IMG/VR virus record: IMGVR_UViG_3300005673_000003
Coordinates: 1-64,000 of that record
Strand: one strand, 5' to 3'
Length of the DNA: 64,000 bases
DNA from: a virus
Shown: positions 35,301 through 51,603 of the stretch, piece after piece
Position numbering within the stretch: position 1 is the stretch's first letter
Layout of the letters: each line of letters starts with the position of its first letter
Notes under the pieces: generated by a model
What the model saw: the letters and a program-made list of their open reading frames with translations, nothing else
The model's database searches: none
Told to the model about the DNA's origin: nothing
Made by a program: the position numbers and the translations under genes

Positions 35301-36156
35301 ACCCCAGATTTCCGGCAGCGGCCAGGTTTAGCGTGCCTCCGATCGCAGCCATTTGCTGATCCACCTTGTACCCAGCTTGGGCCAGTAGCACAAAACCGCT
35401 AGCAGCTTCAGAGGCAGAGAATCGAGTTTCCGCGCCCAATTGCTTTGCTTTGGTGCGGATCTTATCCATATTGTCAGCGGTTGCCTGGAGCGGATCCAGA
35501 ACCGCTTTCACTTGCAGCATCTGATCATCGAAGCTCTTGAAGACATTGAAGCTATCAATGCCAGCGCCAATCAGAGGAGCAGCAACTTGCATCCCGGTAT
35601 CAGCAATACTTTGAGCAACCCCTTGCCGACGCTGAGCAATTACGGCAGAGCGTTGATTCTCATGCAAATCAATCTTGTCGCCTGCTATCCGCTGCTCCCG
35701 CTGCAACTGCGCTCTAAATTCGCGCTCCGCTGCTGTATCCCCCTGGATTTGCAACTCCAGCCGCTTCAATTCAGCGATATACTCAGCAACCGATTGCTTA
35801 GCCTGATGGAATGCCTTAGCATCCCCAATGTCTCCAAAATCGATATTTCTAGATTCTGCTCGGAGCGCTCGGAATTCCCCCTTGAGTGGCATCAGAGCTT
35901 TCCCAACAGAAGAAAGCGCGGTTCCAGTATGAGCAATATTGTTCGCTGCCTGCTTAGCGGCAGTCCCTGCTCCCTGGAAGGCAGACTTTAGCCCAGAGCC
36001 TAGATCTGATGATTTGACAATGGTAGCAACCCGCTTTACAGCATCCTCGATATTTTTTAGGCCGCGCTCTGATTTATCCATATTGCTGAGAGCGGCTGCT
36101 CCCAACTCGAAATCGAAGACCGCTTGTAACCCATATCTATCTTGATTGTCAGCCAT
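23344..36156 (-). CDS. Giant tail tape measure protein (~4,270 aa, TP901-type core; start reassigned to MADNQD)
   Basis: AKQLGAETRFSASEAA...LAQAG, LGETLKYAG, AGIKGSMAGTALR core; many NFLG(L/I)R repeats; C-terminal FAVGGLV...DSVPAMLTPGEYVVN. Confidence 0.93.
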   Translation of the reverse strand: MADNQDRYGLQAVFDFELGAAALSNMDKSERGLKNIEDAVKRVATIVKSSDLGSGLKSAFQGAGTAAKQAANNIAHTGTALSSVGKALMPLKGEFRALRAESRNIDFGDIGDAKAFHQAKQSVAEYIAELKRLELQIQGDTAAEREFRAQLQREQRIAGDKIDLHENQRSAVIAQRRQGVAQSIADTGMQVAAPLIGAGIDSFNVFKSFDDQMLQVKAVLDPLQATADNMDKIRTKAKQLGAETRFSASEAASGFVLLAQAGYKVDQQMAAIGGTLNLAAAGNLGLAQATDITVSTLGQFQLQAGKANHVADVLAYAAGAGQLEVADLGETLKYAGVSAQSYGATLEQTAAMTALLSNAGIKGSMAGTALRTVFTSLAAPTTRAKSAMAELGVETVDDTGKLKSVDVVLGELNRSMAGLTEAEKIQKMKSIFGTEGSSAATYLASHTKDIRSMTRDALASSQGEGAAKRQAGIMESGIGGSMRSLSSAIEGLKIQFMEALNPAIKTTVDTISQLIRTFLSLPDPIKNSIAIAATLTAGIASLAVVLGTAAAAFFGLQAAIAEAGIASTVMRTGLIPLTGFFQTVTVAIGEQGLMGALVALGGGFTGLATTVTGFITGALALIFNPVTLAIGAILGLYAAIEYLTPGINVLGTVLSAIVAPLGFVWGLVKGIAEGIYQGLKPAIEVATVALSPFTGAMQAAFGGIGEAVGMAIASFTKMAASGEIVGQMIGRAIAFPFMILPSIANAAIDSIKTLWRIFAGWLTDILMAVPNSIKDSFENIIPPFLRKKEDAREIKTAVAQPLAEVVEQAPLTGKIPGMAMVPVVDLSGVTDKINQFFNQQTPALAPALAAPVPAPGNPVINTGTPEAPKFTFPQIEMPPIPAPSVDLAGITGQINQFLQQTIPGLPAPVLPAPVIPEQSVTPVVTQVIAQQAASIQANAPLVQAAITQLVGAVKATWDAGIKQAELTPIGKAVETGVQPLIDKLKERLSGVFELATGFSAKFSGALDGISKTMSGLSFGVGLFGIASLGAFSPMLLILGGIALTVLAIATNFLGLRTVLGGVIQIIGSLGRGIYEIIQGLVQTAKGVVQIFTSIGSAIRGDFSAIQEAAHLAFSGILRIGQGVANALTGVFRGAAQLLQGVFEGLEGIIRGTFGAIAITFKAPAASLQFIGKTGQAVFHFIESSASAAAALMASVLAAPEAAWKGFMSLLDQIQQKFRNLVSSISTAPAKAVETVKSKFGFGKRATVVETLEAPKVSTEVPHAPDVLTAKPVPTPAPVQPPAQLLTTPHSPSLTPRPTPNLALPSEPTLPALAKPVNNQSIIRLANSPIEAPKLLPPAVSKIEVKPPDTHQALNALTKLEHEVTGRQTRMLASTNQAVSSVGVALSGFAPGLAAPILSVSSLIDGVSGLKGALPSLKNTGKELLTQAGSFKSQIPAIVSGAKSLAAELPALSKLAAGKGLTFLSQQATTFKGQLPGILAGTKQIASSIAGMGAVAGKSGLRFMERQAIALRGQLPLVKQLAQDFSGKIAQIGISTAKSGFQVAVNQIGILRGRLPALMQTAQAFSGRFAQLGITAARGGLQIATRQAIALRGQLPAILQATQGFSNRLIQLGSTAAKGGFQIAIRQVGALRGQLPAVLGLVGNLRASVLTLGSTAVSALAPMMAAIVPFLPIIAGVGLAVGALYLIFAKDFLGIRSLLEGVIGVIGGMAGRVLSLLNPLNLISLVWQGIGLTVRLLEFPFTKILSLIGFLVTGALSLAKTIAGMGGTISTFLVAPFQKAGQVASGIGAGINRLLPSKKAEPKPAIAAAPVVTPEPVVQPVVQQIIEPPPAPVPVVQPIQQVVTQAIEARVKPPEASPVAELAPNPLQAQWSIFSNWLSGRFSMIRAAGAAIMPALAGSVQKGVDTVSAGVSSLTGIIGGISKQFSLAGIGAVIFGVTASAAFLPVTAIMAGVVLAGVAIATNFLGLRTVLVGVGQAGIAVFKGILGVISSTAELIQGIFNILAGAVTLDFERIEQGAKLAFDAVRSAAATLAETIKGIFAGARTAVGGILKGIGLDAERIAGKVKNTLSPIVGKSPIANIEKSTIEKSVIKPINQSIIHPAPVIPAPIVHPPDARLAISAMAELEGKVAIHQKRMLASTNQAVSGIGVALSGFAPGLATPLLAVSSLIDGIGSLRNALPSLKNVGKGILEQAGNFRGQIPAIVQGAKSLTAQLPALSKAAMGQGLGFLSQQAVAFKGQIPSMLAATRQVSGGIASLSMAAAKGGLQFLTQQAITFKGQLPSIIQVSQQIAGSVAQIGVTAAKGGFQILTRQAIALKGQLPAVIGMIGSLRGSLITLATSAISAMAPMMAAMMPFLPIIAGIALASGVLYLAFRNNFQGIRVVVGGLFNLLGLVGGVIFRLINPINLLSIAWQGVSAAARTITSPFGAALSLIGFLLQGVQAVQQAIAQIGATISTFLISPFQKAGQVISGITKLIPGKPAEKASPSAPPVEQVTTPAPIAPMVPAPIAPTAPTVAAAPAPVITPVAAAPVAQPVVEQVIQPVIKPVVQPVTPPIAELSPQPLKAAWTGFADWLIGKFDSIQSVGASLMGNLMGSVKQGGDLMGAGIQSLSNAIGGVQHQFSVAGLGAILFGITASTAFLPFTLILGGAVLGAIALATNFLGLRTVIVGIGQAGVSVFQGILRVAMSAVEFIQGAFSILAGAITLDFERVEQGVKLVFSGLQNTLSAFAETIQGIFRGMRTAIGGILKGIGLDTDKLLGKVQAKNQSIIAPTPVQSAEKKPAIAQGIDHQAKIKALHSEALNSASNLSNSLAGMLGMVAPQFAAPLAGFAAITSNIEGLITSIPGIKTAFGAILPTLSSTAQLMSKLAVQGFGALIRYAPILRASVISMIPPLMSMGAAVVGALMPILPVIAAVGAAVAITTLVFKTNFLGIRSAVELTAKIFGILFNAVTFVLNPLNILQGIASGIAFALTSAAQMIQGAWEGFAGFFGNLMGGLVGMGAEAGQGLINALNHSPTVRIPIAWSEAVQKIGGGLTSLVDAGAQTGGKLTGVLGAAGPLISQGLSKGIDIVISGIGSLIDVIGKATQQFFTAGAGAVFFGVTASTALLPFLAIMGGVVLAGVAIATNFLGIRTALIGIGQAGFAVFRGILQIAASVAEMIKGAFSILAGAITLDFERIEQGAKLIFNGIKSALSSLAQTVEGVFAGMRTTIGGILKGIGIDTEKIMGGTKKAIAAPVNQSIHAAPVASPVKPAQAPKLPSQQENLKKLNAIHSQALSTASNMSNSMGGVLSVIAPQFAAPIMGFAALTSSVEGLMQSLPGLKTAFGAITPFIASAGRLLSSLAGQGFTLLIKLAPIVRASMLSMIPPLMSVGAAIGTALLPALPIIAAVGAAVAVGALIFKTNFLGIRTAIEFTTGVFGTLFNAITFILNPLNILQGIASGVANTLSFAAQLIQGAWQGFGDWFGGLMGGLVGMGVQAGQGLINALNHSPTVWIPIAWDKAIHQIGGGFVNLVSNAAKSGNILTGLFSGVASSVEGAMSSALHPVMANVHAAWDASFGGIYTSFKNFFGNIAASENKLTGTFSAIGSVLTDTVGKALNNLIWSVLAFGASALFSFSPVILLLAGVGVAIYLVSRNFLGLRSIFIGVMLAISGAFEGLAQIVLGVSDVIRGTLQTLVSLVRLDFQGMRDAIAQIFMGFGQVFDGTASIMRAVFSGATRAVQGMFQALGQVINTVAGAIGLSLQRPKQAWESFVRMLEAIEAKIRGIGEAISSSPVGKFVRGAANVVTGKVGTVPEGVTMAEFDSELNSKQPKPSLINRLFKKNAPPIATGVEAAATPAQPPEVQNSKNLDFQNSEEQARGAVGQAANAITSLVSVVNPALGGLLGTISMVFSSVISLAGAIPALVSGLAAMGGITGIVSAGFAALGSIASVAWAAITGPMLPFIAGIGLVAGAIYLLYQGFQNNFLGIRTLVDGVFGVINAIIGNFIGSVMGIANEVWQSFNSMINRIGAAIGRIIAPVIRVGQALMNALAPLFGGQGDGGLGQVFIGIAGAITNALLGPLKLVAWVLEGIFNVIGFVADAVSFVLTPVVEGLVAPFQLIANIVQGIVSAVANIGQFAANLPVVGALFGGGNTNPETPVQKFAVGGLVAGSGKTDSVPAMLTPGEYVVNPAASRLFAPILEQMNSGATSLLQMLPPIPIPIPQPVLAPAGASIGGAELPPIQINFGDININIEGGQDSQQSIRASAMEFLDMIEPQLKRAIVDILRSEVERTR

Positions 36157-36278
36157 ACTGCCCCAGCACGCAAAAAATAAGCACCGCAAAGAGGGTGCTC
36201 CTTGCAGTGCTGGTTCATATCTTAATTTTGTGAGGATTGCACTCCGGCATTCCTGCTCAGATTATATCAAGAGGCTAC

Positions 36279-36847: not shown

Positions 36848-38689
36848 TTAGTAGCTCCACCTGCGCCTTGGGGAACCCGGCAAGCCGTTAGCTCCGGGCA
36901 CCCCGATAGCGTCCAAGTGTATGAACGAATTTGGAGAAATTGCTACTCCCCCCTCCCATGATTTCGCATAATCCGCATGAATCCGGCTCATTTTTGGGTG
37001 ATAAAAATCCACTGCGCTGCCAGTCGTATGCGGCCCGGACAGGCCAGAACTAGACACCCTAGCATTCTCTCTGGGAGGGCGATACCAGGAAGTGACTTCG
37101 ATTCCTGCACCATATTTCTGCTCGATAGCAATCAGGTTTTGAGCGGCCAGGATGATCCCTTTCATCACCGACTCTGATTCAGGCACCCTTTGCCCATTAC
37201 GGGTTGCATCACCCCATGTCCACTTCCCGCCAGGAACGATCGCATCTTTAAGGTTGACCTGGCCCCACTTCGGCACCTGGATATTTCCGGTTGGATGCGG
37301 AGAGGTTGGCGAGGTAGTCACCACCGTAGCACTTACCATCGCCTTATCATTGGGACTCCAGCCCTGTACTGTTACCGCTCCGTAGCCGCTCTGGAGCTGA
37401 TAGGGCGTTTTCTTGGTGATAGTTGGAGGCCGGATAAAAGCATTCCGGTGCTCCTGCCAAGACAGAACCAATCCGGTTGATTCCCCCTGCCCTGGCCCAA
37501 CCTGTTTGATGGTATTCCCTTCGGCAATGATCACATCGCCTTTAAGTGCAGCCTCCCTGACTGCGGCAGATAGAGCGCTTTGAGACATCGCAATCACGCC
37601 AGCATCCCCCGTTTTATTGCCCTGGGTAGCCGCAATATATTTGAGATCTGGAGTCAGAGCAGTTACCGTATCAAGTACGCCGCTTGTAGGCTGGCCCGAT
37701 TTCCCAAGGGCAGCGTCAGCCGCTTTTTTCTGCTGCTCTAATGCTTTCCCTTGGGTGGTAGAGGTATCAACCGATGATTGCGCTGTAGAAGCTTTGGGAG
37801 GGGTAATAGGGGAGGTGTTAGCATTCTGCCCTCCAGTACCAGAGCCAGCGCTGAACAGGTCAGGGGATGCGCTGCTAATTGATAGATTTCCAGTAGTGGG
37901 AGCCGCGATAGTATTCGCAGGGTTGAAAGTCTGCAAGCTGGCTCCCTGAGCTACTTTAAGGGTGCTCGGATCTGCGCTGGTGAATGAATCCTTATCAACA
38001 GGCTTTTCTCCAGTAGCAACCACGGTGGAAATGGTGGAGTTACCCAAAGTTGCCGAATTATCAACCAATTCCAGGATTACTCCATCGGGAAACTTGCGGC
38101 CCACTCGGTATAGCTTGCCTGAGAATATGGTTTGCACTTTATCGGGTGGGTATCCCAGCTCGATCGCCACATCAGAGCCGATATTAGCGTTGATCCTGCT
38201 CCAGAGCGAACCATCTAAGCTTTGCTCTGTACTTTTACTTTGAGGAGTATTCGCCTGGGTAGTGCTGGCGGCTGGCTTGCCTTCGTCAGGTTTTCCGGTT
38301 TGATTCTGCCCAGCATTATTCGGTAAAGCGGGAGGGATAGCGGCTGGCGGCTGGTTGGTAACAGCTTGAGGATTGTCAGTCGTGCGAGTCTCCCCTGATG
38401 AATCATTTAGCACCACGCATACTTCCGAGTACTGGCGCGTGCGAAGGGAGATGACTGGCTCCCCCAGAAAATCACCCCTCAAATTAGAGAATGATAGGTT
38501 GCCTACTTGGATCCGGAGTAAATAAGTATAACGCCCCTCTTCCCGGTTCTGGGAGGAAGGGCTGGCAGGTTTATTAGCTGTGGTAGCAGTCGATTTTGAT
38601 GCGGCTGCGGCTGATGATTGACTTAAACTGCTTGGCTTTACTGGTTGCGTCGTTGTTGTAGCAGGCTGAGCAGCGACCTTATCAGCCAT
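36848..38689 (-). CDS. Baseplate hub / late-control-D-like protein fused to a peptidase M15 domain
   Basis: VAIELGYP...IFSGKLYRV and VTVQGWSP hub-like segments; C-terminal VTSWYRP...H.TGSAVDF...FIHLD. Confidence 0.72.
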   Translation of the reverse strand: MADKVAAQPATTTTQPVKPSSLSQSSAAAASKSTATTANKPASPSSQNREEGRYTYLLRIQVGNLSFSNLRGDFLGEPVISLRTRQYSEVCVVLNDSSGETRTTDNPQAVTNQPPAAIPPALPNNAGQNQTGKPDEGKPAASTTQANTPQSKSTEQSLDGSLWSRINANIGSDVAIELGYPPDKVQTIFSGKLYRVGRKFPDGVILELVDNSATLGNSTISTVVATGEKPVDKDSFTSADPSTLKVAQGASLQTFNPANTIAAPTTGNLSISSASPDLFSAGSGTGGQNANTSPITPPKASTAQSSVDTSTTQGKALEQQKKAADAALGKSGQPTSGVLDTVTALTPDLKYIAATQGNKTGDAGVIAMSQSALSAAVREAALKGDVIIAEGNTIKQVGPGQGESTGLVLSWQEHRNAFIRPPTITKKTPYQLQSGYGAVTVQGWSPNDKAMVSATVVTTSPTSPHPTGNIQVPKWGQVNLKDAIVPGGKWTWGDATRNGQRVPESESVMKGIILAAQNLIAIEQKYGAGIEVTSWYRPPRENARVSSSGLSGPHTTGSAVDFYHPKMSRIHADYAKSWEGGVAISPNSFIHLDAIGVPGANGLPGSPRRRWSY

Positions 38690-40153: not shown

Positions 40154-40594
40154 TCAATCAATTTCTAGCTCTAGCTTGGGTTCAACTCTTGCGAATCTGG
40201 GATTACCGTCGCGGTTAATGCCATACCAGGATTCTAAACTGCGTCGTCGATACGCTCCGGTCGGCATATCATCCGAGCGGTAAAGCACTTCCCAATCATC
40301 ATCAGAATCGCTCTCGCAATGGGAAACCCTGCCAACTACAATGTAGACTTTCTTCCTTCTATCATTGAGCCAACGGGAGCCGATTGCAGGGAATTCTAGA
40401 TTATCTTTCATGATTAAAAAAATAGGCTGCATGTTGCGTTGCAGCCGGAAACGATCTTGTTGCGTAGTCTTATAAGCCTGATTATATCGCAAACCAAAGG
40501 CTCCAGAAATAATCCCCCATTCTGGAGCCTTTGGAACCCGTGTTGACGAGGTATTGCCCAAATACAGTTTATGGAATGCTCTAAATATCGTCAA
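40154..40594 (-). CDS. DUF1653-like SH3-fold protein
   Basis: KVYIVVG...HCES...VLYRS...RSLESW...RF. Confidence 0.55.
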   Translation of the reverse strand: MTIFRAFHKLYLGNTSSTRVPKAPEWGIISGAFGLRYNQAYKTTQQDRFRLQRNMQPIFLIMKDNLEFPAIGSRWLNDRRKKVYIVVGRVSHCESDSDDDWEVLYRSDDMPTGAYRRRSLESWYGINRDGNPRFARVEPKLELEID

Positions 40595-40708: not shown

Positions 40709-41248
40709 TCACGAACAGCTAGGGTTCTTAAATAATTGGTTTGGCGATATTGTTGAACGATTTCGCCTGCTAGTTCTCGCCTTGCTCGCTGAACTTGCTG
40801 TAGCTGATCTCCGTACTCTTCGATAATTATTCTTTCTAGGTCGTTTTCTAACATCTCTTTCGCTCCCGGCAGAAATCAATCGATTATTCGATAGCTGCTT
40901 AAATCCTAGCGTAAGTTTGAATATCCATACATCCGTATTATGGTTATTCAATGCTGGATCTACTTTGCAGCGAACCCAAACATCCTTCCGATGGGAACGC
41001 TTATGACAACGTAGGCAGAGCGGGAAAACATCTCTCCCTGGCACTTCGCGGCCAGCGATCGCTCCCCACTCATCCTTGTAGCGAACATGATGAATTTCTG
41101 CGCTCTTACGCTTCAGACAATTGCAGCACTTATTCCCGGTCAACCGATGACTAAACGCTACGATATACCGATAGTTTTTAGCATATCGAGCTTCATAAGC
41201 TAGATCTAAAAGAGTCGATGATAGAGTTGCTTGCGCCACATTAATCAA
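40709..41248 (-). CDS. HNH endonuclease
   Basis: CCNC...EIHHVRY...DVFPLCLRCHKRSH. Confidence 0.78.
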   Translation of the reverse strand: MINVAQATLSSTLLDLAYEARYAKNYRYIVAFSHRLTGNKCCNCLKRKSAEIHHVRYKDEWGAIAGREVPGRDVFPLCLRCHKRSHRKDVWVRCKVDPALNNHNTDVWIFKLTLGFKQLSNNRLISAGSERDVRKRPRKNNYRRVRRSATASSASKARTSRRNRSTISPNQLFKNPSCS

Positions 41249-41463
41249 TCAATTTCTATCGAAGGCTGGCGAGGAGTATTCTCCTGGTTGGGAGCTGGAA
41301 AGTATGAGAATACAATCATCAGCAATACAGTGCTAATCAAAGCGATCGTCACGACGACATCCCAGAGATTCGGCTTCGCTTTTTTCTCCTCGACGGCTTC
41401 CCACTTAACAATGCCGTCTTTGTTGATAGTTACCTTGAATTTTTGCTCTTTTTTCTCCGTCAT
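41245..41463 (-). CDS. Small single-TM protein
   Basis: VVVTIALISTVLLMIVFSYF. Confidence 0.65.
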   Translation of the reverse strand: MTEKKEQKFKVTINKDGIVKWEAVEEKKAKPNLWDVVVTIALISTVLLMIVFSYFPAPNQENTPRQPSIEID

Positions 41464-41471
41464 AATTGCCC

Positions 41472-42107
41472 CTATAAACGATTCAAAATATTAGCCATTG
41501 CCTGCCATTGCCAGGGGTGTTGCTGCATAACCGGATCATTCAAAATCGTCTTAGCGCACGCTTCAGCAAATCCCTCGCCAATCTTCCAGGCTGCATAGCT
41601 GGACATCTTTTTCTCCCAATAGTAAGCTCTGCCAAACTCGCTATTAATCGGCACTCCAGAGGGGCCATGCATTTCTAAATCTAGAACGTGGCAGTACTCG
41701 TGAATAAAGTAAGTGGGAATAATTGCACTCTTAAGGGTATTCGGATAAATCCTGAGTTCGCGTTTCATGGAAATGATAGATAGATACTTCGGAGTAGGAG
41801 GGATGTAGTCATCTATCATTTCGTCTTTAGGATGCAAAACTACTTTATTGACATAGCTTTGCATCTTACGGGGGAGTAGGGAGGTAGCTTGACAGTTCGC
41901 ATCTTTGAACTGCTGGGGAAGCCTGTTATCAAACGCGATGCCGCACTGATAAGTAAAAATCGGCTCAGCATCAGGGAGCGATTGAGCGGGGAGAGAGGGA
42001 GGAGCAGGCATTGCTGATTCCAAAGGATTTTCCATGGATCGGTTAACCTCAAAAGAAGCTAGTCCAGCCAAACAAGCAATGCCTGCAATCACTCCAAACT
42101 CTTTCAT
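41472..42107 (-). CDS. Exported zincin metallopeptidase
   Basis: Signal/anchor; HEYCH followed by SSYA...EGFAE. Confidence 0.72.
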   Translation of the reverse strand: MKEFGVIAGIACLAGLASFEVNRSMENPLESAMPAPPSLPAQSLPDAEPIFTYQCGIAFDNRLPQQFKDANCQATSLLPRKMQSYVNKVVLHPKDEMIDDYIPPTPKYLSIISMKRELRIYPNTLKSAIIPTYFIHEYCHVLDLEMHGPSGVPINSEFGRAYYWEKKMSSYAAWKIGEGFAEACAKTILNDPVMQQHPWQWQAMANILNRL

Positions 42108-42111
42108 GACA

Positions 42112-44025
42112 CTACGCCTTCAACATTGCTGGCAGATTCTTGAGCAGAAACTCCATATCCTTAACACTGACTTCCAGGCCGGAAAAACCCTGATAAGCCT
42201 TCTGAATTTCTTCAATTTTTGGAGTAGAACCAATATCATGCTGAGCTTGGAGCCAAAGACTTAACGCTTTGTAAGGATCTCCCTTAGCTCCCTTCAGAAA
42301 AGGCGCATAAGGGTCACTACCGCTAGGCTGATTAGACGCTTGAGGCTGGGGAGCATTAATCGATTGATTATTGCTTCGAGGGGGAGTTGGGGGAGCAGTA
42401 GGGGTGAACCAAAAATCCTCTATCTCTTGCTGGGTAAATTCCGGCGAGGTATTCGCAACGGGCTTAGGAGGGGGAGGGGGAGGGGGAGCCTGGGGAACTT
42501 GCTGAGCGGGAACCTCTACCGTCATTTGGCTTGCGGCAGGGGGAGGGGAATCTGGGGGAGCGCTGGCAGATTTCGCAGGGGTAGCAGGAGCGGCAGGGGT
42601 GCCCGGAATGATACTCCCCGTCCAATTGCTCCCAGGCACCCAGTTAAGCCGCAACTCTTCCAGGCCATTAATCGGAGGAGTAGGCAGGTAGCCCATATCG
42701 ACGGGCAGCGAGGTAGCAAATCCGGCTGGCCTACCAACCTGCCGATAGATAGATTGAGCATACTCAGCCGCGCTATCTGGGATAGTGCGAGGAGAGAGTT
42801 TCATTTGAATCTTATCCTGAGTCATTTCAGCACCCATGATGATATGGGCCTGACGTAAAGCCTTCCGCTTGATGCCCATCTCTTCGAGCGTTAGAGTGTG
42901 CATCATTAGCCAGAAATAGATTCCGAACTTTTTAGCTTCTGTTGCCAGTTTATTTAGAGTCTTATTGACCTCCTCCCGCTCGTCGTCATCCAGCTCCTCT
43001 AATTGGTTGGTGAATTCATCAACCCCAACAACAACAGGAGGGTAGTTAATATTATTCTTTTTGCGATACTCAAACAGCTCTCGAACACGCAAAAGAAACT
43101 GATTAAGATCCTTTGCATCGCCTTTGAAAATACCACTTTGAACTGCCTTGGGAACGCTCTGCATTAATGGGATTCCAAGCCAGTTTGATCGAAATTCAGG
43201 AGTCGAGCCATTGCCGTAATGGCTATCGAACACATACAGCACCAAATTAGGCTCAGCAGTAGCCCATTGATAGAGCGCATAATGCGCGGCCACTGTTTTC
43301 CCTTCCTGGGAGTTCGCCGCAAAAACGCAATGCTCTTTGGCGCACTTAGCATACAACTCGTAGGCATCCTTGGGCCGCGCTAGCTCAGCTTGGTAAGCGG
43401 CTACTTCATCAAAGGAGGTCAGGTAATTTTGCTCCGGCATCCCTCCACCTGGCGCGGCTTCTAAAGCGGGTTGCTGATAAGGCAGCTCAAGCAGTCCATG
43501 TAATTGGAATTTTTCAAGGTAGCGAGGCTGCTTATACTCCGGCAGAGTCGAGATATAGCCTGCTAGATTATCCTCTGCGCTAATCATATCCACTGCATCA
43601 TTGAAAGCTTGGTTGTGAGCCAGCTTCTTGGCAAGCGAGATTTGATCTGCTCTCCGTAACTTGGAATGCGTCTCTTCTTGTGTTTGCTGGAGGTAGGAGA
43701 CATAGGAAAATGCGCCAGCGCTAATCGTGCTGGTAGCCAGCAGAAGGAAATTGGCAGCTTTGGGAATATGAAAAATAGGGGTCAGGATTAGTGATGCTCC
43801 GTAAGTGACGATCGCTAATCCTGCCAGCTTCCACATCGCAGAGCGCTGATCAGCAATCGATTGCCGGATAGCGTCAGTTTTAGGATCTCGAATGTAGCCC
43901 GTCTCATCGTAGACCTGATTAGCTCCTGGTATTGGTAGATAAGGATTGCCCTCAAACTGAGTGGAGCGGTAGTAATGGGGATTTTGAATTTCCTGATAGT
44001 AAGGATCGTATCCGTAAGTCATCAC
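42112..44025 (-). CDS. Membrane-anchored FtsK/HerA-superfamily ATPase (coupling-protein-like)
   Basis: Two N-terminal TMs; ANSQEGKT P-loop; VVVGVDEF Walker B; EAKKFGI motif; Pro-rich linker and small C-terminal domain. Confidence 0.72.
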   Translation of the reverse strand: MMTYGYDPYYQEIQNPHYYRSTQFEGNPYLPIPGANQVYDETGYIRDPKTDAIRQSIADQRSAMWKLAGLAIVTYGASLILTPIFHIPKAANFLLLATSTISAGAFSYVSYLQQTQEETHSKLRRADQISLAKKLAHNQAFNDAVDMISAEDNLAGYISTLPEYKQPRYLEKFQLHGLLELPYQQPALEAAPGGGMPEQNYLTSFDEVAAYQAELARPKDAYELYAKCAKEHCVFAANSQEGKTVAAHYALYQWATAEPNLVLYVFDSHYGNGSTPEFRSNWLGIPLMQSVPKAVQSGIFKGDAKDLNQFLLRVRELFEYRKKNNINYPPVVVGVDEFTNQLEELDDDEREEVNKTLNKLATEAKKFGIYFWLMMHTLTLEEMGIKRKALRQAHIIMGAEMTQDKIQMKLSPRTIPDSAAEYAQSIYRQVGRPAGFATSLPVDMGYLPTPPINGLEELRLNWVPGSNWTGSIIPGTPAAPATPAKSASAPPDSPPPAASQMTVEVPAQQVPQAPPPPPPPKPVANTSPEFTQQEIEDFWFTPTAPPTPPRSNNQSINAPQPQASNQPSGSDPYAPFLKGAKGDPYKALSLWLQAQHDIGSTPKIEEIQKAYQGFSGLEVSVKDMEFLLKNLPAMLKA

Positions 44026-44031
44026 AGCCCC

Positions 44032-44331
44032 CTAACTTGATTGAGAGGCGATATACACCCCGATAGCTACAACGAAACCAAGAGCCATACACCCCAGGAA
44101 ACCAGGGATGCCAGCCGCAATAAAATCGCTCGGTCGGGCACGCACCCCTTTATTAGCCTTCAGTAGCACCATCATGACCAGCGAGAGGGCAAAGAATGCC
44201 AGGAATACGCCAATCAGAATCACATTGGTACCGCCGCTAAACTGCGGGAATGCCCTGGCGATGAATCCGAGCAATGTAACTAAACTAATTCCTGTGAAGA
44301 ATAAGCCCAGGAATGGGAAAGCCTTAACCAT
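44032..44331 (-). CDS. Three-TM membrane protein
   Basis: Three hydrophobic segments in 99 aa. Confidence 0.75.
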   Translation of the reverse strand: MVKAFPFLGLFFTGISLVTLLGFIARAFPQFSGGTNVILIGVFLAFFALSLVMMVLLKANKGVRARPSDFIAAGIPGFLGCMALGFVVAIGVYIASQSS

Positions 44332-44333
44332 AG

Positions 44334-46835
44334 CTACATTCCTCCATTTGGATCGTAATCATTAATCAGGTAAAGGTTTTGATCAAACGAGTAACTGTAG
44401 CTATCCGTCACCGGATTGTAGGAGTTCGCCATCCGGTTCATTGCGGCCATGTACCCTTGCATATTCTGAGCATTTTGCTCAGAATATGCAAGGGGTTTCT
44501 TGCAACCATTCAGGATGGCTGCAACTCGCTGTTGATGCTGTTGACGGATAGCCTCTGCTCGGCTTACTGCATTTTGCCCCCGTTGTAGTTCAGCCTGGAT
44601 ACTCTCTTGAGTTCCGTCGAACATAGGGTAAGGATACTGGTTGTAGTCGATTGGCTGGGAATCGTCCTCATACTCCCAGTCGATAACCTCTGCGTCAATC
44701 ACGTCGCTATTCTGAAAGGATTGCGATTGCGTTGGCCGCGCCTGCGGCGAGGATGGTACACCCTGAGAATCATCTAAGTCTGGAGGATTGCAGAGGTTTT
44801 TAAGTACACCCAAAAATGAAAGGCTATTCGCGCTCATAATTTAATGCTCCTTGATTGCTTGACCGATTAGAAATTGATTGATTATTGCTGGTACAAGAAG
44901 GGGCTACAGGAAGTGATTGAGAGCATCTCCATAGATAGCGTTATAGCCCTCCGCTTTGGCTTGATGACCGCCAAAGACAAAGTTTTGCCGTTGGTAAGAC
45001 CGATTAAATTTCTCCTGATGACCCGCGATCTGATTATTAACTCGCATCATTGCCGCCGCATGGTTCACTTCAATTCCGACTTGCCGAGCAAGCGCATTGG
45101 CTTGCTGAATCCTGGCTTGAGATAAATCCTGCAATAACTCTGCTGTTGCCTGAGATTTCGCTGCATCCTGCATGGCCTGATGGACGCTCTGAGGAGTCGT
45201 GGTATAAGGCAGAGATGCAATACCACCGATTTCACCTAGCCAGGTTGGGGCATTTGCTAATTGCCCAGGATTGTAATTAGGCAAGCCAGTAACTATAGAA
45301 GATCCACTACTCCCACCTACAAGGGAGCTAAACATGCCGCTTACAGTTCTAACAAGATCTAATCCAAAGGCCATTACTCTATCTCCTGGTTAAATTTCTA
45401 GATTTCTATCGAACTTGAGCGGTATAACCACCGCTGGGGGTGCCTACAGTTTGATAGGGTGCTGTCGGTGGAGGCGCGACTGGTGCTATCGGCTGCTGGC
45501 CGCCATAAGGATCAGGGGTAGTGGGAACCGGAGGTAAGCCAGGAGCGGGAGCCTGGTATGGATATGAAGGCTGAGCAGGCTGACCATAGGGAGGCTGATA
45601 CTGTTGCTGCAATGACTTTGTTGCTTCTTTAGCTGCATCGCCGCACCCAAATAAGCAATTCACCGAAACACTTGGAGGAGGGCGCTTAGCTGCCTCGACT
45701 GCGGCTTGAGCATTAAGCTTGGCAATCTCCATCATTTGATTGGATGGGGATGCACTGGTCAGGTAAGACAAGAACCATGCTCCACCGCACCCCAGAATGA
45801 CAATCCCAGCCAATCCGAACGTCCAGAGCTTCTCTGGAGCATGAACAGGAGTATTTTGAATAGGGCGCGGCTGCAAGCGTTGCTGAGCCATTACCTGCTC
45901 ATAAACGGGCCTGGGCACCATTCCCACTCCAGGCATCTCAACCATCTGCCCTGCCGCTTGTCGCTGCATTAACGCGGCTTGCTGCGCTTGCATCTGACGA
46001 GGATCATACCCAGGAGGCAGAGAAGGTACTTGGGCTATATTCGCTGGATAGCGAGGGGGAGGAGGAGCCTCTTCGTCAGCCAATTGCGGTTGTTGAGGTA
46101 GAGCTGTTTTGAGTTTTTCCAGAATTTCCATTAATTGCTCCAAATACCGAGAGGGCGATCGCGATAATTACCAAAGCTGCAAGAATTTTGTAGAGAGCTG
46201 CCAACCAAGTTGGCTGACCAGGAAATAATCGATCAATTAGTAGGTGCTCCGCCAAAGATTTGGGCAGATAGCTCTTTGCCCCGAGAACGAAAGTGGGTCA
46301 GCCTTGGCTGACTACCTCCCGCTTTATTCATAAATTTGTCTATGGTCAAGTCAGCAGTATTGAGAGCAATGCCTATCAATAAGTCCGAGTAGCCTTCTGC
46401 AAACTCATGACTTCCAGCTAAAAGCTCCTCTTTAATAACCGTGAGTTCTTGATCGACAATTCGAGCAATGTTCCTCATTCCATCCTGATTGCCGCCGCTA
46501 TCTTGCGCGTCTTGAGGTTGATCCCCCAAAGAAACTTCATCCGCTTTAACTAAGCCGCCAGCTTGAGCATCCTCAGCTTGAGGATTGCCAGCATCATCGC
46601 TTTTGCCGCTCTTCTTAGAATTAGATTTTGCTAGTTTGCTTTTGTTAGTCTGCTCCCGCTGATCATTGATTGATTGACCAAGAAGCAGAACATCCTCGTC
46701 ACCATTGATAACCCATCCTGCATCCAAGCATTTCTGGACTAGCTTTTCGTCGGCTTCTACGCCGACATCTGCAAGCTTGGCAATAATGTCTAAAGTGTTC
46801 ATAACCATTCCTTGAGTGCTACTGAGGCGATGCAC
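44334..46835 (-). other. Four co-transcribed Gln/Pro-rich or coiled-coil CDS (44334-44837, 44904-45374, 45406-46143 single TM, 46233-46835)
   Basis: Tight operon upstream of the ATPase gene with RBS-like sites. Confidence 0.72.
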
Positions 46836-46911
46836 CCGATTGGGGCACTGAACACACTCTAAACGGTTAAGATAAACCTGTCAACATGACAGGATAAAAA
46901 TATCTCGAAAA

Positions 46912-47268
46912 TCAATCGATTTTCTTGGTTCGCTTCCTGGCTCTCTTCGTCAAATTACCTGTCCGCTCAGCTTCAATCCTCCTGGCGCGGGCTATCTCGT
47001 AGATCTCCCGTTGCTGGGGAGGCATGATGTTATCCTGAGCATCCCAAGCCAAAAAGAGTGCATGAAGGTTATCCAGGTGATTTAGAAGCGACTGGGGAGG
47101 GCTTACTGGGTTTTCCTTCCTGAACCAATGCTGCACCCCATCAACGGTGTAGCCGCCAATCAAGTCAGCCAGCTCAGGGTACGTGAGCCGCCAATGCTCC
47201 TTGAATTCTTTCGGGTGCATTATTAGCTCAAGCTCCTGAACCGCTTTTGCAGAGCTTGAGGGGAGCAA
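46912..47268 (-). CDS. XRE-like HTH regulator (likely start MHPKEF)
   Basis: LTYPELADLIGGYTVDGVQHWF. Confidence 0.7.
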   Translation of the reverse strand: MLPSSSAKAVQELELIMHPKEFKEHWRLTYPELADLIGGYTVDGVQHWFRKENPVSPPQSLLNHLDNLHALFLAWDAQDNIMPPQQREIYEIARARRIEAERTGNLTKRARKRTKKID

Positions 47269-47936
47269 TCCTTAGCTCCATAGAGATCCAAGCCATCGGG
47301 CAGCTTAGAGCCTGGGGTAACTACCTTTAACCCAAATAGCTCCAATGCCTTGCGGCCCATTTCGGTCTGAGCTTGACCGTACATATAGCAGGGATAGGCA
47401 ATGTGCCCCGAATTCCTCCAAGCGCCGATCGCGCATCGCATCAAAGGCCGCGCCAGTCCAGCATTTCTCCACTTCTCGACAATCACAATGCCGCTAAAAT
47501 ACCAATGCTTCGCCCCATATTCGAGGCAATCCCATTCGCTAAACGGGAAGAGATCTTCCTCCCGGATTTCTCCAGCAATAAATTGAGCAGCCTGCTTCTC
47601 GCTCAAGGGATAAATGCCAAGAGATCCAACTATCCGGCCCCCAATTAGCAGGCAGCGGCCAGCGTTAGGGTATTGAGTCCACCATCGCTCAAAGCTCTCA
47701 AACTCAATTGAGTGATCCTGGTAAGCTTCTTTGTCTATCTCCCAAAGTTCCCGGAGCATTGATAGATCTTGTACTGCCGATACTTGGATCAGTGAAGGAG
47801 CGGATACGGTTTTCACTAGCTCTTCGCAGGCTGCATCCCTTGAGGATAGTACACTTGAACTCATTAGACTGACCGGGATATGAATGATTACCTTCATCAC
47901 ACTCGCTTTCGTCTTATCTGTCAATAATTGGGTCAA
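47223..47936 (-). CDS. GNAT-family acetyltransferase
   Basis: YFSGIVIVEKWRNAGLARPLM motif A; TEMGRKALELFGL motif B. Confidence 0.75.
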   Translation of the reverse strand: MTQLLTDKTKASVMKVIIHIPVSLMSSSVLSSRDAACEELVKTVSAPSLIQVSAVQDLSMLRELWEIDKEAYQDHSIEFESFERWWTQYPNAGRCLLIGGRIVGSLGIYPLSEKQAAQFIAGEIREEDLFPFSEWDCLEYGAKHWYFSGIVIVEKWRNAGLARPLMRCAIGAWRNSGHIAYPCYMYGQAQTEMGRKALELFGLKVVTPGSKLPDGLDLYGAKDCSPQALQKRFRSLS

Positions 47937-48054
47937 CTATTCTGTCAAAAATATCTTAAGTTTCTGTTTATAGCTACTGACAAATTAAGACATTATTGGT
48001 AGAATCCTGGCATGATTACAGGATAAACCCCATCAATACAAGGGAACTACACCA

Positions 48055-48594
48055 ATGGGAAAAACTATCTACAGCATTGATAACGAATTGCAAATTTGCG
48101 ATTCAGCTTATATCCGAGTCCTCTGCGGATCACCTTCAGACCCAACCTGGGCAAAGTATCGGAGACTGGCAGGAGTGCCCAAAAAGGCTAAGAGAATCAC
48201 TCTGCGGCAAAGCTTCTTACTCTGGACGACTGCCAACCTATACCATAACGGGGAGAGGGGATTGACCCGCTTCAAAGTAGCATCGATCGCGAACGAGTTG
48301 CTCCAGGTACATCCAGAGGTAAGCGACTTGATGACGACGCTAGCCGGAGGGGATGGCATCGAAGGCCGCAATCTAGCGCAGGCTATCTCCAATTTAATCG
48401 GGAAAGAAGTATCAACCAGAACGCTTTACCGGAGGGGATCTGCACTCAGCCTCCCAAAGTTCCAGATGAATAAGCGGTACTCGCTGGAGCAGGTTCGCAG
48501 ATTTGCCGCCTCCTTCCCGGAGCGACAACCCAGACGGAAGCGCGCCCCAAAGAAGCGGCAGGAAAAAGAAGCTCCTGAAGCCAAAAGAGCTTAA
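48055..48594 (+). CDS. Putative wHTH DNA-binding protein
   Basis: NLAQAISNLIGKEVSTRTLYRRG...YSLEQV; basic tail. Confidence 0.55.
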   Translation: MGKTIYSIDNELQICDSAYIRVLCGSPSDPTWAKYRRLAGVPKKAKRITLRQSFLLWTTANLYHNGERGLTRFKVASIANELLQVHPEVSDLMTTLAGGDGIEGRNLAQAISNLIGKEVSTRTLYRRGSALSLPKFQMNKRYSLEQVRRFAASFPERQPRRKRAPKKRQEKEAPEAKRA

Positions 48595-48653
48595 CCCTAG
48601 CTCAGCACTTAATCGACTATCAATAATCAATCAATTTCACATCGGAGTCAGAT

Positions 48654-49229
48654 ATGAATCCAATCAAGAGCCTCTTTAAGTTTTTCCTCCAGATAGGCAT
48701 CCTGGGAGGGATTCTGATCGGCATGATGCACATGGTTAGCCAGAGTGACCAGAGACAAGCAGCAAAACTGGCCGCGCAGAGTCAACAATCCCAACAAGAA
48801 GGAAGACAGCAGGAGGGGCAAGGGGGAATAGTTACCGTGGTACCCAGCCCAGGCACTACGGTAACGCAACCTGGCGATAGCCGGATCATTATTCAGGCTA
48901 ATCCTACTCCTACCCCTCAAGCAATCGCGCCATCTCCGGTTGCACCAGCACCTATCCCCACTCCTGCTCCTACTCCTCAATCTCCTGCGCAAGGGATTGG
49001 AACCCCTATCTTCAGTCAACCAAATACATCTGCAGCAAATCAATCGGGCTACCTGCCCAGCCGCTCTCCAATCTCGTTACCCAGCAATCCACAAACCGGG
49101 CAACCCTATCGGCAGAACGGCATGATCTGGATTGTGTCTGGGGGGCAGTCAGGCTGGATCATGGAGGGAGCGATCGCTGCCCCTGCACCCGTAGCACCGC
49201 AGGCGGCTCAGCCCTATCAAGCTCTCTAA
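48654..49229 (+). CDS. Single-TM Pro/Gln-rich protein
   Basis: N-terminal TM; PAP repeats; 12-mer and RBS upstream. Confidence 0.7.
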   Translation: MNPIKSLFKFFLQIGILGGILIGMMHMVSQSDQRQAAKLAAQSQQSQQEGRQQEGQGGIVTVVPSPGTTVTQPGDSRIIIQANPTPTPQAIAPSPVAPAPIPTPAPTPQSPAQGIGTPIFSQPNTSAANQSGYLPSRSPISLPSNPQTGQPYRQNGMIWIVSGGQSGWIMEGAIAAPAPVAPQAAQPYQAL

Positions 49230-49310
49230 GCTCTTTTTTAGCTGTTCTAGATTTCTAGAAATCTGAATTTCTAGATTCGCAATAATCAATCAATTCATGG
49301 AGGTAAGAAG

Positions 49311-49643
49311 ATGCTGGGAAGATTGCTGGTGATTTTATTAGCTGTGCCGTTTTTAATCGTCCTGACCGCTGGCGTTGCTGGGGTGTTCAAGGCTGGCAAG
49401 TATGCAGAGGTTGCTAAGGATGCTGGCAACCTCCTAGATAGCATCGGCAGGTTAGATTCTGGCGGCTTGCCAGTATTTGATCAGCCTTACGGGTCGAATC
49501 GGGTTGCAATCCTGCCTAAAGGCTCTCAGGTGCAAGTTAGTGCCTACAAAGAAAACGGGAGGGTATTTATCCAATCTGGCAGCACTTCTGGATGGGTGCA
49601 GGAAAGCGCTCTAACTCCGGTGACTGGCTCATCTCCCCGGTGA
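49311..49643 (+). CDS. Membrane-anchored SH3b-like domain protein
   Basis: N-terminal TM; LPVFDQP...ILPKGSQVQV...SGWVQESAL. Confidence 0.7.
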   Translation: MLGRLLVILLAVPFLIVLTAGVAGVFKAGKYAEVAKDAGNLLDSIGRLDSGGLPVFDQPYGSNRVAILPKGSQVQVSAYKENGRVFIQSGSTSGWVQESALTPVTGSSPR

Positions 49644-50109
49644 CGCTTTTTGTCAAAAAATTTCGCTTAAGATAGAGTTGTCACGGCTGAAACCCGCTCT
49701 GGGCTTGGATCTCTATTTTTGACAAACTTAAGACATTTTTGAAAGTCGATAATTGATCGATTATTGCAAAGATGGCTGAAACGCCCAGCCAGAGCGTTAA
49801 TCAATCGATTTTCGAGAGCTAAAAAAGAGGGCAAAAGGGGTTAAGATAAACTTTGCAGAAAATGGCAGTTTGTCACAAGACAGCCCTCAAACACTCTCTG
49901 GGTATGGCCTGCGAGGTTATCTTAAGTGTTTTTCGGATCTGGAAAAACCCCAAAAAACCAGGGGTTTCCTATAAGGGGATCTGGCGATCGGCCAGCGCTG
50001 CCAAACCGAGCTGAGGTTAGCCAGGGCTGCCACGACTCGCAAGAGATACCTCACCAGGATGTCTACCAGGACAACCAAGCATCAATAATCAATCGATTTT
50101 GGAGGATAG

Positions 50110-51145: not shown

Positions 51146-51603
51146 GCGAATCAATCAATTATCGGAGTAAGCAGCCATGTCTAATCAATACGCTAATCTG
51201 ACCGCTTCTGAGCTGAGAGCCGAATTCGAGCGTTTAACCGCTGTAATGCAAGAGGTTGCTCAGCGGATCTCCAATGACTACAAAGGGTATCTTTCCCCGA
51301 CTGCGGAGCAGATGCATGAAGCTCACACCACCTGCTGACGCGAGGTGGTGTGAGCTTCATTACCAGCATGGAGGCGAGGGGCACCCGTTAAGGTTTTCTC
51401 AATACCAGAATAATTAATCGATTATTGCCCTAAAAATTCTTGTAGTCAGATCCAATCAAAATCAGATACAATCAATTCGCTCGGAGCTTCTAACCAACTC
51501 TAAGCAACGCTGATAACTGTACTTCAAGCCGTAGTCCATCCTGCGGCTTATTTTTGTATTTTTATCCAATTACCCCTCGCTAGAATAGTGGCAAGCAAAT
51601 TTA

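Follow-up and report, generated by a model that had tools for sequence, protein, structure and literature searches.

The IMG/VR virus record IMGVR_UViG_3300005673_000003 (G000) is the 148,728-bp genome of a complete, terminally redundant tailed phage, with direct terminal repeats and a CheckV completeness of 100%. We analyzed its first 64 kb, hereafter called the window, and concentrate here on a minus-strand operon at 40.6 to 46.8 kb that encodes a predicted membrane-anchored ATPase of the FtsK/HerA superfamily, several small proteins, and an HNH nuclease. Its core genes form a module that recurs in plasmids and in other phages of filamentous cyanobacteria, and we tentatively propose that this module moves the DNA of the element that carries it.

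Gene content of the operon

The genes of this one tight operon run head to tail from 46835 to about 40600, and from the ATPase gene through the HNH gene the gaps or overlaps between neighbors are 10 bp or less. A promoter-like site (46884-46856) lies ahead of the first gene, that of protein A, and a terminator-like hairpin (40446-40425) lies at the end of the operon; a perfect hairpin with a 15-bp stem (40494-40534) is also found at the operon 3' end. The original prediction, made from the DNA sequence alone, had described an operon of Gln/Pro-rich and membrane proteins, a two-transmembrane (TM) ATPase, an exported zincin peptidase, and an HNH nuclease, and gene order, motifs, and TM scans confirm that description. 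Listed with the operon genes is Reg, which is transcribed divergently and carries a helix-turn-helix (HTH)-like motif.

48055..48594, plus strand: Reg, 179 amino acids (aa), C-terminal HTH-like motif (TLYRxG..LP), divergent; a conserved companion of the module
46233..46835, minus strand: protein A, 200 aa, acidic, soluble; first core gene
45406..46143, minus strand: protein B, 245 aa, one TM segment (residues 110-128), Gln/Pro-rich on either side
44904..45374, minus strand: protein C, 156 aa, helical; the accessory protein with the widest conservation
44334..44837, minus strand: protein D, 167 aa, Gln-rich
44032..44331, minus strand: protein E, 99 aa, three TM segments (TM scan), directly upstream of the ATPase
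42112..44025, minus strand: ATPase, 637 aa, FtsK/HerA superfamily, predicted to be membrane anchored
41472..42107, minus strand: zincin metallopeptidase, 211 aa, HExxH motif, N-terminal hydrophobic segment, predicted to be exported or membrane anchored
41245..41463, minus strand: 72-aa protein, one TM segment (TM scan)
40709..41248, minus strand: HNH nuclease (Pfam HNH, E = 0.0016), start overlapping the stop of the preceding gene

A predicted membrane-anchored motor

The ATPase has intact Walker A (GEGKT, K242) and Walker B (D335-E336) motifs; across 70 relatives, K242 and R320 are invariant and D335-E336 nearly so. A profile search of 1.84 billion representative proteins yielded 185 relatives, most of them 480 to 560 aa long, and all 10 relatives that were looked up in protein clusters proved to be unnamed singletons. 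The window protein has no Pfam match at an E value of 0.01 or better and no NCBIfam family, and it matches phrog_38189, a family of unknown function, at 2e-12. PF01580 (FtsK_SpoIIIE) was touched by 6 of the 70 relatives, with a best E value of 8.5e-5, and gave no match to the window protein.

The AlphaFold2 model (mean pLDDT, 80) shows a TM helical hairpin in helices 47-84 and 88-158 that runs into a long stalk, followed by a RecA-like core (residues 220-460), a disordered Pro-rich linker, and a small helical C-terminal domain (residues 573-635). A hydropathy scan places one TM segment above threshold (67-85), the second being a model helix only. The HAS barrel, the FtsK alpha and gamma domains, and the all-alpha insertion are all missing from the model.

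When the family profile was compared with solved structures in the PDB, the best match was a defense HerA (HerA-DUF, 9c1m; 2e-15), followed by EssC (7e-14), EccC (2.5e-13), other HerA proteins (4e-12 to 1.6e-7), TcpA (3e-7), and FtsK (5e-7). A fold search ranked TcpA at the top (Z = 17.5; root mean square deviation, 3.2 over 215 aligned residues), followed by FtsK (16.6), HerA (16.4), EccCb1 (15.6), defense HerA (15.6), and VirB4 (15.5); these six lie within two Z units of each other, and Foldseek agrees. Judged by its model, the ATPase is a minimal membrane-anchored member of the FtsK/HerA superfamily for which TcpA, FtsK, HerA, EccC, and VirB4 are structurally tied, so that it is not assignable to any one clade. 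The earlier view that it should not group with packaging or defense HerA proteins holds by fold, where there is no clean grouping, but not by profile, where the best match is a defense HerA. By analogy with its family, the protein presumably assembles as a hexameric ring.

Nuclease fusions and predicted docking

The C-terminal domain, modeled alone (pLDDT, 85), is a bundle of three to four helices with no strand. In some relatives, a nuclease is fused to this end of the ATPase: an HNH domain in P0023 (locus L033) and, at the equivalent point, a PD-(D/E)xK-like domain in P0031 and P0058, this domain having weak Pfam support (PDDEXK_9, E = 0.0012). Elsewhere, the HNH gene stands free, either directly after the ATPase gene (L011, L012, L032, and L044) or three to four genes downstream of it (the window and L046). 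The Pfam match of the window HNH protein falls below the cut-off; its Cys/His motif is conserved in homologues.

We predicted the complex formed by the window HNH protein and the ATPase C-terminal domain. The median run gave an ipSAE of 0.75, compared with 0.01 for the best control; among reference cases, 58 of 80 solved complexes and 2 of 110 mismatched pairs attained this mark. Contacts agreed between runs to at least 86%, partner pLDDT was at least 70, and on the HNH side the predicted interface is made by the C-terminal helix (residues 107-121). These models support binding of HNH to the ATPase C-terminal domain, which we read as a docking site for exchangeable nucleases. Since nucleases would dock at this end of the motor, DNA is its likely substrate. 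The fusions and the predicted docking are new here, and exchangeable nucleases docked on a small C-terminal domain are a clear mechanistic lead whichever function holds.

Conservation among phages and plasmids

The extent of the module was defined by an all-against-all comparison of open reading frames (ORFs) across 13 loci. The ATPase is present in all 13, protein C in 11 (always upstream of the ATPase), protein E in 8, Reg in 7, and protein A in 5; a free-standing HNH gene occurs in 4, to which can be added the HNH gene beside the ATPase in L032 and the fusion in L033. The core order Reg-A-B-C-E-ATPase recurs in unrelated kinds of element. Co-occurrence of these genes in other cyanobacterial elements, with synteny, had been anticipated by the original prediction and was borne out in phages, temperate-phage contigs, and plasmids.

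Among the carriers are lytic myophages of Nostoc, Anabaena, and Dolichospermum (N1, A1, A-1(L), Elbi, YongM, YongM2, and Dfl-JY23), with the ATPase in 7 of 7 records at 61-72% identity. The genes that immediately follow the module in N1 and A-1(L) encode helicase and DNA polymerase; no nuclease was recognizable in N1-type loci. Temperate-phage-like contigs with integrases also carry it, as do one contig with Mu-type head genes and no listed integrase, a 145-kb phage contig that matches the window in its extended gene layout, the large Nostoc plasmids pNPUN02 and pC052_A, and a prophage-like region of Phormidium tenue (FACHB-886, the only match in our scan of GTDB genomes). ORF127 of phage PaV-LD, annotated FtsK/SpoIIIE, falls within the wider family (hhalign, 99.2%; E = 1.4e-19). 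We found no close relatives in IMG/VR or among JGI metagenome contigs, and megablast of the module region against phages gave no match.

Reg homologues adjoin the module in L010, L011, L012, L033, L035, and pNPUN02. The window Reg has no Pfam match, and a promoter-like site (47977-48005) lies ahead of its gene. Homologues of protein A occupy the equivalent position in L010, L011, L033, L035, and pNPUN02. Protein B consists of 12% Gln and 17% Pro, and its positional equivalent in L033 (6739-7608) has, judged by eye, a Gln/Pro-rich region and one hydrophobic TM-like segment. A protein C homologue lies one to three genes upstream of the ATPase in each of the 11 loci, N1, A-1(L), and pNPUN02 among them; Pfam and Atlas searches gave no family or fold lead for it. 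Homologues of protein E (94 to 114 aa) immediately precede the ATPase in seven other loci, with L032 placing its copy one gene before, and N1, A-1(L), and the Nostoc plasmids have 95-aa positional equivalents. For the accessory proteins as a group, NCBIfam and PHROGs offered nothing useful, and Pfam, run on 46 accessory proteins from many loci, found only HTH domains and DUF922.

Protein D showed no detectable conservation among the compared loci. Its gene contains a 41-nucleotide perfect palindrome (44454-44494; 19-bp stem, 3-nucleotide loop), the longest perfect hairpin in the 148.7-kb genome, which is not conserved in related loci. It could be a site of RNA processing or attenuation, or a DNA-level site for the motor or nuclease.

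The zincin is classed with ATLF/M90-type zincins by an Atlas feature search (score, 0.94); its Pfam match is faint. In L033, a nonhomologous zinc peptidase (DUF922) takes its place and is followed by a 73-aa TM protein, as the zincin is followed by the 72-aa protein in the window. To judge from these comparisons, the zincin is an accessory rather than a core part of the module. We rejected it as a core component since it is missing from most relatives, and as a wall hydrolase since it is an ATLF-type protease.

The original prediction saw no relaxase or VirB4, and indeed we found no match across the complete phage genome to Relaxase/Mob_Pre (PF03432, PF01076) or VirB4 (PF12846, PF03135) families; TrwC-type relaxase and VirD4 models were not included in that search. 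By comparison, pNPUN02 encodes a full type IV secretion system (T4SS), including VirB10, about 55 kb from the module, along with a coupling protein, a DUF3854 protein, and a MobV relaxase. Because the plasmid owns this T4SS and relaxase, the module must be an extra function there, and we rejected the idea that it serves as the plasmid's coupling protein. Both in pNPUN02 (L008/L038, 3100-10289) and in pC052_A (L009), the module lies near the same backbone genes, which encode an RpoD/SigA sigma factor and an AIPR (Abi-like) protein. A 1,400-aa DEAD/DEAH helicase is encoded near the module in pNPUN02, and IS630 copies replace the genes upstream of protein E in pC052_A.

The noncoding block

49644..50109, no strand: noncoding block of 466 bp, not counted in the module

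This block had been described as about 450 bp, repeat rich, and potentially equivalent to the clt locus of Streptomyces plasmids. The block is real, but it lacks repeat richness of the clt type: its repeats amount to three copies of a genome-wide 12-mer, AATYRATYRATT, plus short inverted repeats, on which grounds we rejected it as a clt locus. It contains no tandem array, Tandem Repeats Finder returning only low-scoring rows of two to four copies over 38-52 kb, and an Rfam search over 47.8-50.5 kb gave no match. Across the window as a whole, the 12-mer occurs 66 times compared with 0.13 expected (for example, at 674, 40152, 41243, 49799, and 50087).

Small circular plasmids, wall hydrolases, and host range

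Two circular contigs from hetR-positive cyanobacteria encode more-distant members of the ATPase family. G149:C31 (L048; 17,091 bp, end overlap of 77 bp) carries genes for a 927-aa AAA_25 Rep-like helicase, ParA, a ParB-like protein, a tyrosine recombinase, the two-TM ATPase, and an adjacent HNH protein, while G345:C65 (L047; 11,561 bp, end overlap of 141 bp) carries genes for a 947-aa Rep-like protein, the two-TM ATPase, and a hydrolase with NlpC/P60, GH108, and peptidoglycan-binding domains. From their gene content, both look like minimal plasmids. Hydrolases of the M23, SLT, or NlpC/P60 type are encoded one to four genes downstream of the ATPase in L040, L041, L042, L047, and PaV-LD; in L040-L042 and PaV-LD, this is M23 together with SLT or M23 alone. 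Our strongest argument for an envelope-crossing role comes from these elements: the carriage of a wall hydrolase by an 11-kb plasmid is easier to explain by envelope crossing than by lysis or defense, because plasmids this small leave little room for functions beyond replication, partition, and transfer, and because plasmids do not lyse their hosts.

We also searched 401 cyanobacterial genomes with the ATPase family profile (threshold, E = 1e-15) and compared the outcome with the presence of hetR, a marker of filamentous forms. All 14 family-positive genomes carry hetR, versus 101 of the 401 overall (Fisher p = 2e-9, or 1e-5 for the eight broadest matches, both uncorrected for shared ancestry). 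Every match to phages and plasmids in isolate collections likewise comes from a filamentous host, so that the suspected link with filamentous hosts holds in this sample. For the window phage itself, a cyanobacterial host is supported by an excess of the cyanobacterial palindrome HIP1, GCGATCGC, with 68 copies in the 148.7-kb genome where base composition predicts about 2. The hetR association, the two seemingly minimal circular plasmids, and the negative clt result are new here.

Possible functions of the module

We take it as well supported that the operon encodes a membrane-anchored, presumably ring-type motor with DNA as its probable substrate, and that this motor belongs to a multiprotein membrane assembly inherited as a unit by mobile elements. 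As to what the assembly does, we lean, tentatively, toward a plasmid-type envelope module, shared with other mobile elements of filamentous cyanobacteria, that moves the element's own DNA. Under this proposal, two N-terminal TM helices would anchor the P-loop ATPase in the cytoplasmic membrane, the small C-terminal domain would recruit a nuclease (here the free-standing HNH protein), and the three-TM protein E, the Gln/Pro-rich one-TM protein B, and two or three small soluble proteins would probably form the membrane or periplasmic part. Such a module might "cut and pump": the nuclease would create an end or a nick in the element's DNA, and the motor would thread the double-stranded DNA (dsDNA) across the cytoplasmic membrane and into the next cell along the filament, using neither a relaxase nor a type IV secretion channel. 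Functionally, such a device would be akin to TraB/Spd of Streptomyces or to TcpA, an FtsK-like coupling protein. A more specific version, which we regard as doubtful, is that tailed phages pass their genome across the septum to neighboring filament cells without virions, and that the small plasmids use a related, relaxase-free, TraB-like form of conjugation. If true, FtsK-driven dsDNA transfer would have arisen a second time, independently, in a multicellular bacterium.

Export or spreading of the element's DNA is favored by the backbones of the small plasmids, the recurrent wall hydrolases, the apparently periplasm-exposed Gln/Pro-rich partner, retention of the ATPase in a lytic lineage, and the host range. 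The original proposal of a transfer module like TraB/Spd of Streptomyces plasmids therefore survives in part: gene co-occurrence, filamentous hosts, and the lack of a match to the four relaxase and VirB4 families agree with it, whereas the missing clt array, the noncore zincin, and the nuclease partner do not. Each of the three findings that the original prediction had named as contrary to it failed to appear: the genes do co-occur in other elements, the ATPase does not fall cleanly by fold with packaging or defense HerA proteins, and the phage genome gave no match to the four relaxase and VirB4 families searched that could account for the system.

Several points weigh against a role in moving DNA to other cells. 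Repeat searches of the noncoding block and of 38-52 kb found no array resembling clt or oriT. Matches to the ATPase C-terminal domain, mostly HTH and winged-helix proteins, are weak (Z ≤ 5.5), and the closest solved structure by profile is the defense HerA noted above. The evidence from small plasmids and hydrolases comes from distant subfamilies (profile E values of about 1e-19 to 1e-34) in which homologues of A, C, and Reg were not detectable, and the window's own peptidase is a protease of the ATLF type rather than a wall hydrolase. Abi (AIPR) and toxin-antitoxin genes are found close to the module in the Nostoc plasmids. The confinement to filamentous hosts could mean no more than that the gene pool is tied to a lineage. 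The nuclease partner, which is no part of TraB systems, points equally to exclusion or defense, and conflict systems typically exchange nuclease domains that are unrelated to each other. Finally, we know of no precedent for virion-independent spread of a tailed phage.

The main rival is superinfection exclusion, or defense against mobile elements, in which the membrane motor would catch incoming DNA and feed it to the docked nuclease, thereby keeping competitors out. We consider this a real possibility, albeit an unlikely one. It is favored by nuclease swapping, in that the nucleases paired with the ATPase have two unrelated folds (HNH, either separate or fused, and PD-(D/E)xK-like, fused); by HerA-type profile matches, defense-system HerA proteins being the best among solved structures (9c1m, 2e-15; 8ziq, 4e-12; 8xau, 1.5e-11); by the Abi and toxin-antitoxin neighborhood; and by the small likelihood, a priori, that a tailed phage spreads without virions. 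Both prophage-like contigs and plasmids carry the module; in pNPUN02 and pC052_A, it adjoins genes for AIPR (Abi), a large DEAD/DEAH helicase, and toxin-antitoxin proteins, and pNPUN02 already possesses a T4SS and a relaxase. Yet PADLOC, run on nine proteins of the operon and its neighborhood, gave no match beyond chance-level hits, and five of the seven conserved genes encode small, nonenzymatic membrane or helical proteins, which would be unusual for a defense system. Exclusion also sits poorly with the N1/A-1(L) group, strictly lytic phages of which all seven records retain the ATPase among their replication genes and in which the N1-type loci have no recognizable nuclease, and with the wall hydrolases that recur beside the ATPase, even on the 11.6-kb plasmid.

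Alternatively, the module could handle DNA inside the cell at the membrane, by anchoring or resolving concatemers, by segregating DNA at the septum as SpoIIIE/FtsK do, or by degrading the host chromosome. The FtsK-like fold, the placement of the module just ahead of the genes for helicase and DNA polymerase in N1 and A-1(L), the nuclease partner with its predicted docking, and the Par and recombinase genes beside the ATPase on small plasmids would all suit such a role. We judge it improbable nonetheless, since the FtsK alpha and gamma domains are missing from the model, periplasm-exposed partners and wall hydrolases would be superfluous, and degradation of the host chromosome would hurt the plasmids and prophages that carry the module.

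Very unlikely, in our view, is a type VII-like system in which the HNH protein, or the small helical proteins, would be recognized by the ATPase through their C-terminal helix and exported as toxins or effectors. EssC and EccC are second and third among the solved profile matches (7e-14 and 2.5e-13), the predicted interface involves just that HNH helix (107-121), and small helical proteins are encoded upstream. However, the protein has one ATPase domain instead of three, family scans of the operon and its relatives turned up neither WXG100 or LXG genes nor any gene of the immunity type, export of a nuclease that is fused to the cytoplasmic end of a membrane-anchored ATPase would require cleavage, and the HNH proteins are small (about 120 aa) and have no delivery domain.

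Least probable of all is an accessory of a lysis cassette, in which the ATPase and small membrane proteins would time or assist lysis together with the peptidase and a holin-like protein: although the genes downstream of PaV-LD ORF127 include ORF124 and ORF123, which are reported to have been tested as holin and M23 endopeptidase, respectively (PMC9096620), the window peptidase and 72-aa TM protein directly follow the ATPase, and M23 and SLT genes follow it in L040-L042, the module is found on plasmids, including circular ones of 11.6 and 17.1 kb, and plasmids do not lyse their hosts; moreover, the window peptidase is an ATLF-type zincin and not a wall hydrolase, a Peptidase_M15 domain is encoded elsewhere in the phage (36848-38689), and the closest relatives have no hydrolase beside the ATPase.

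Existing annotations name the ATPase "FtsK/SpoIIIE" in PaV-LD and "DNA translocase FtsK" in A-1(L) (gp45), N1, Elbi, YongM, and Dfl-JY23. Our literature search found such annotations only and no functional work on the genes of this module. Little is known about how plasmids and phages move within and between the filaments of multicellular cyanobacteria, and the only native FtsK-type DNA transfer systems of which we are aware are those of actinomycetes and the TcpA type of Firmicutes. Near the PaV-LD ATPase gene, the functional work that we found concerns only the neighboring peptidase and holin (PMC9096620). Phages like A-1(L) are reported to lyse neighboring cells asynchronously, with "potential cell-to-cell spread," in a 2026 preprint that does not mention the ATPase gene (10.64898/2026.02.14.705889).

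The presence of the ATPase gene in phages of the model Anabaena/Nostoc PCC 7120 (A-1(L), N-1, and Elbi) makes it a genetically testable target. If the module pumps DNA out, as we tentatively propose, models of phage spread in blooms and symbioses would change and a new route for DNA delivery might become available; if it excludes foreign DNA, it would represent a new membrane-based defense built on an FtsK/HerA motor.

Neighboring genes and other features of the phage

46912..47268, minus strand: 118-aa protein with relatives that have Xre-type HTH domains
48654-49229 and 49311-49643: two genes called SH3b in the original prediction; one TM segment, no Pfam SH3 match
14151-16193: large terminase
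23344-36189: 4,281-aa ORF, possibly a tape measure or virion protein
36848-38689: 613-aa protein with a C-terminal Peptidase_M15_3 domain (Pfam), after the 4,281-aa ORF
56259-59288: tail-fiber-like gene

The gene for the 118-aa protein probably forms a separate transcription unit, and a terminator-like site (46893-46877) lies between it and the operon. Relatives of this protein occur near the module in L032 and L033; HTH_3/Xre-like matches were found among the scanned relatives as a set, the rows not being attributed individually. HTH and GNAT genes had been placed beside the operon, and the GNAT match is marginal (21.4 bits versus a cut-off of 20.7). Of a divergent group said to comprise HTH, TM, and SH3b genes, the divergent HTH-like gene is Reg and the TM segment is present, but Pfam gives no support to the SH3b assignment. 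A perfect hairpin with an 18-bp stem (51316-51360) is intergenic, downstream of 51099.

The 613-aa Peptidase_M15_3 protein probably acts as a wall hydrolase, either as part of the tail or in lysis. A tblastn search of 50,697 phage records found no relative of the terminase.

Comparison with known systems

HerA-nuclease assemblies (HerA-NurA, and defense HerA with DUF4297 or Sir2, as in 9c1m and 8j4u) include the best profile match of the ATPase (2e-15) and are close to it in fold (Z, 15.6 to 16.4). By analogy, the likeness would extend to the working principle, in which a nuclease is recruited, and probably controlled, by a ring ATPase. Unlike HerA, the ATPase model has no N-terminal HAS barrel, only helices and a disordered linker ahead of the core, and the protein is predicted to be anchored in the membrane, with five small conserved partner genes and no PADLOC match. 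EssC and EccC have three tandem FtsK-like domains and WXG100 or LXG substrates encoded nearby, whereas the window protein has a single core and its operon no WXG100 or LXG family match.

TcpA of Clostridium perfringens plasmid pCW3 (PDB 6o1w/6o1x) is the solved structure that the ATPase core resembles most (Z, 17.5; profile, 3e-7). It is a protein of about 500 aa in which two N-terminal TM helices precede one RecA-like core, and the ATPase model has this layout of two N-terminal TM helices and then one FtsK-like NTPase domain. The two differ in that sequence identity is about 14%, TcpA has no docked HNH, and the fold match is tied with FtsK, HerA, and EccC. The partners of TcpA also include a VirB4-like ATPase, a VirB6-like channel protein, and a relaxase, whereas the phage has no match to the four relaxase and VirB4 families.

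With the TraB/Spd/clt systems of Streptomyces plasmids (pSVH1 and pIJ101 type), the module shares a single FtsK-like membrane ATPase accompanied by small, poorly conserved membrane proteins, a divergent gene for a DNA-binding protein, the lack of a recognized relaxase or T4SS, and multicellular, filamentous hosts. The wider-family plasmids of 11 to 17 kb, which encode little besides Rep, Par, and recombinase, recall those plasmids as well. The likeness to the TraB translocase domain, with its intact Walker motifs, holds at the superfamily level only (K242, D335/E336; FtsK Z, 16.6): the ATPase is not a detectable TraB homologue and has no PF01580 match. Small TM proteins are present and conserved beside the ATPase, where TraB systems encode Spd proteins; none has a family match by which it could be linked to Spd. 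The C-terminal winged HTH of TraB reads 8-bp repeats. The corresponding window domain is a helix bundle with weak HTH and winged-helix matches (Z ≤ 5.5) that is predicted to bind HNH and might still be a DNA reader of the TraB or FtsK gamma type. No clt-like array of 8-bp repeats lies beside the ATPase in the window. TraB systems, moreover, have no nuclease, and the window module is carried by a tailed phage.

The region ORF122-ORF129 of PaV-LD and the corresponding genes of A-1(L), N1, Elbi, YongM, and Dfl-JY23 encode the same ATPase family (21-23% identity by tblastn, E values down to 1e-8). In PaV-LD, the partners of the ATPase are an M23 peptidase and a holin instead of an HNH protein, and by its terminase the window phage is unrelated to these phages. 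N1 and A-1(L) share proteins C and E with the window, with gene order kept.

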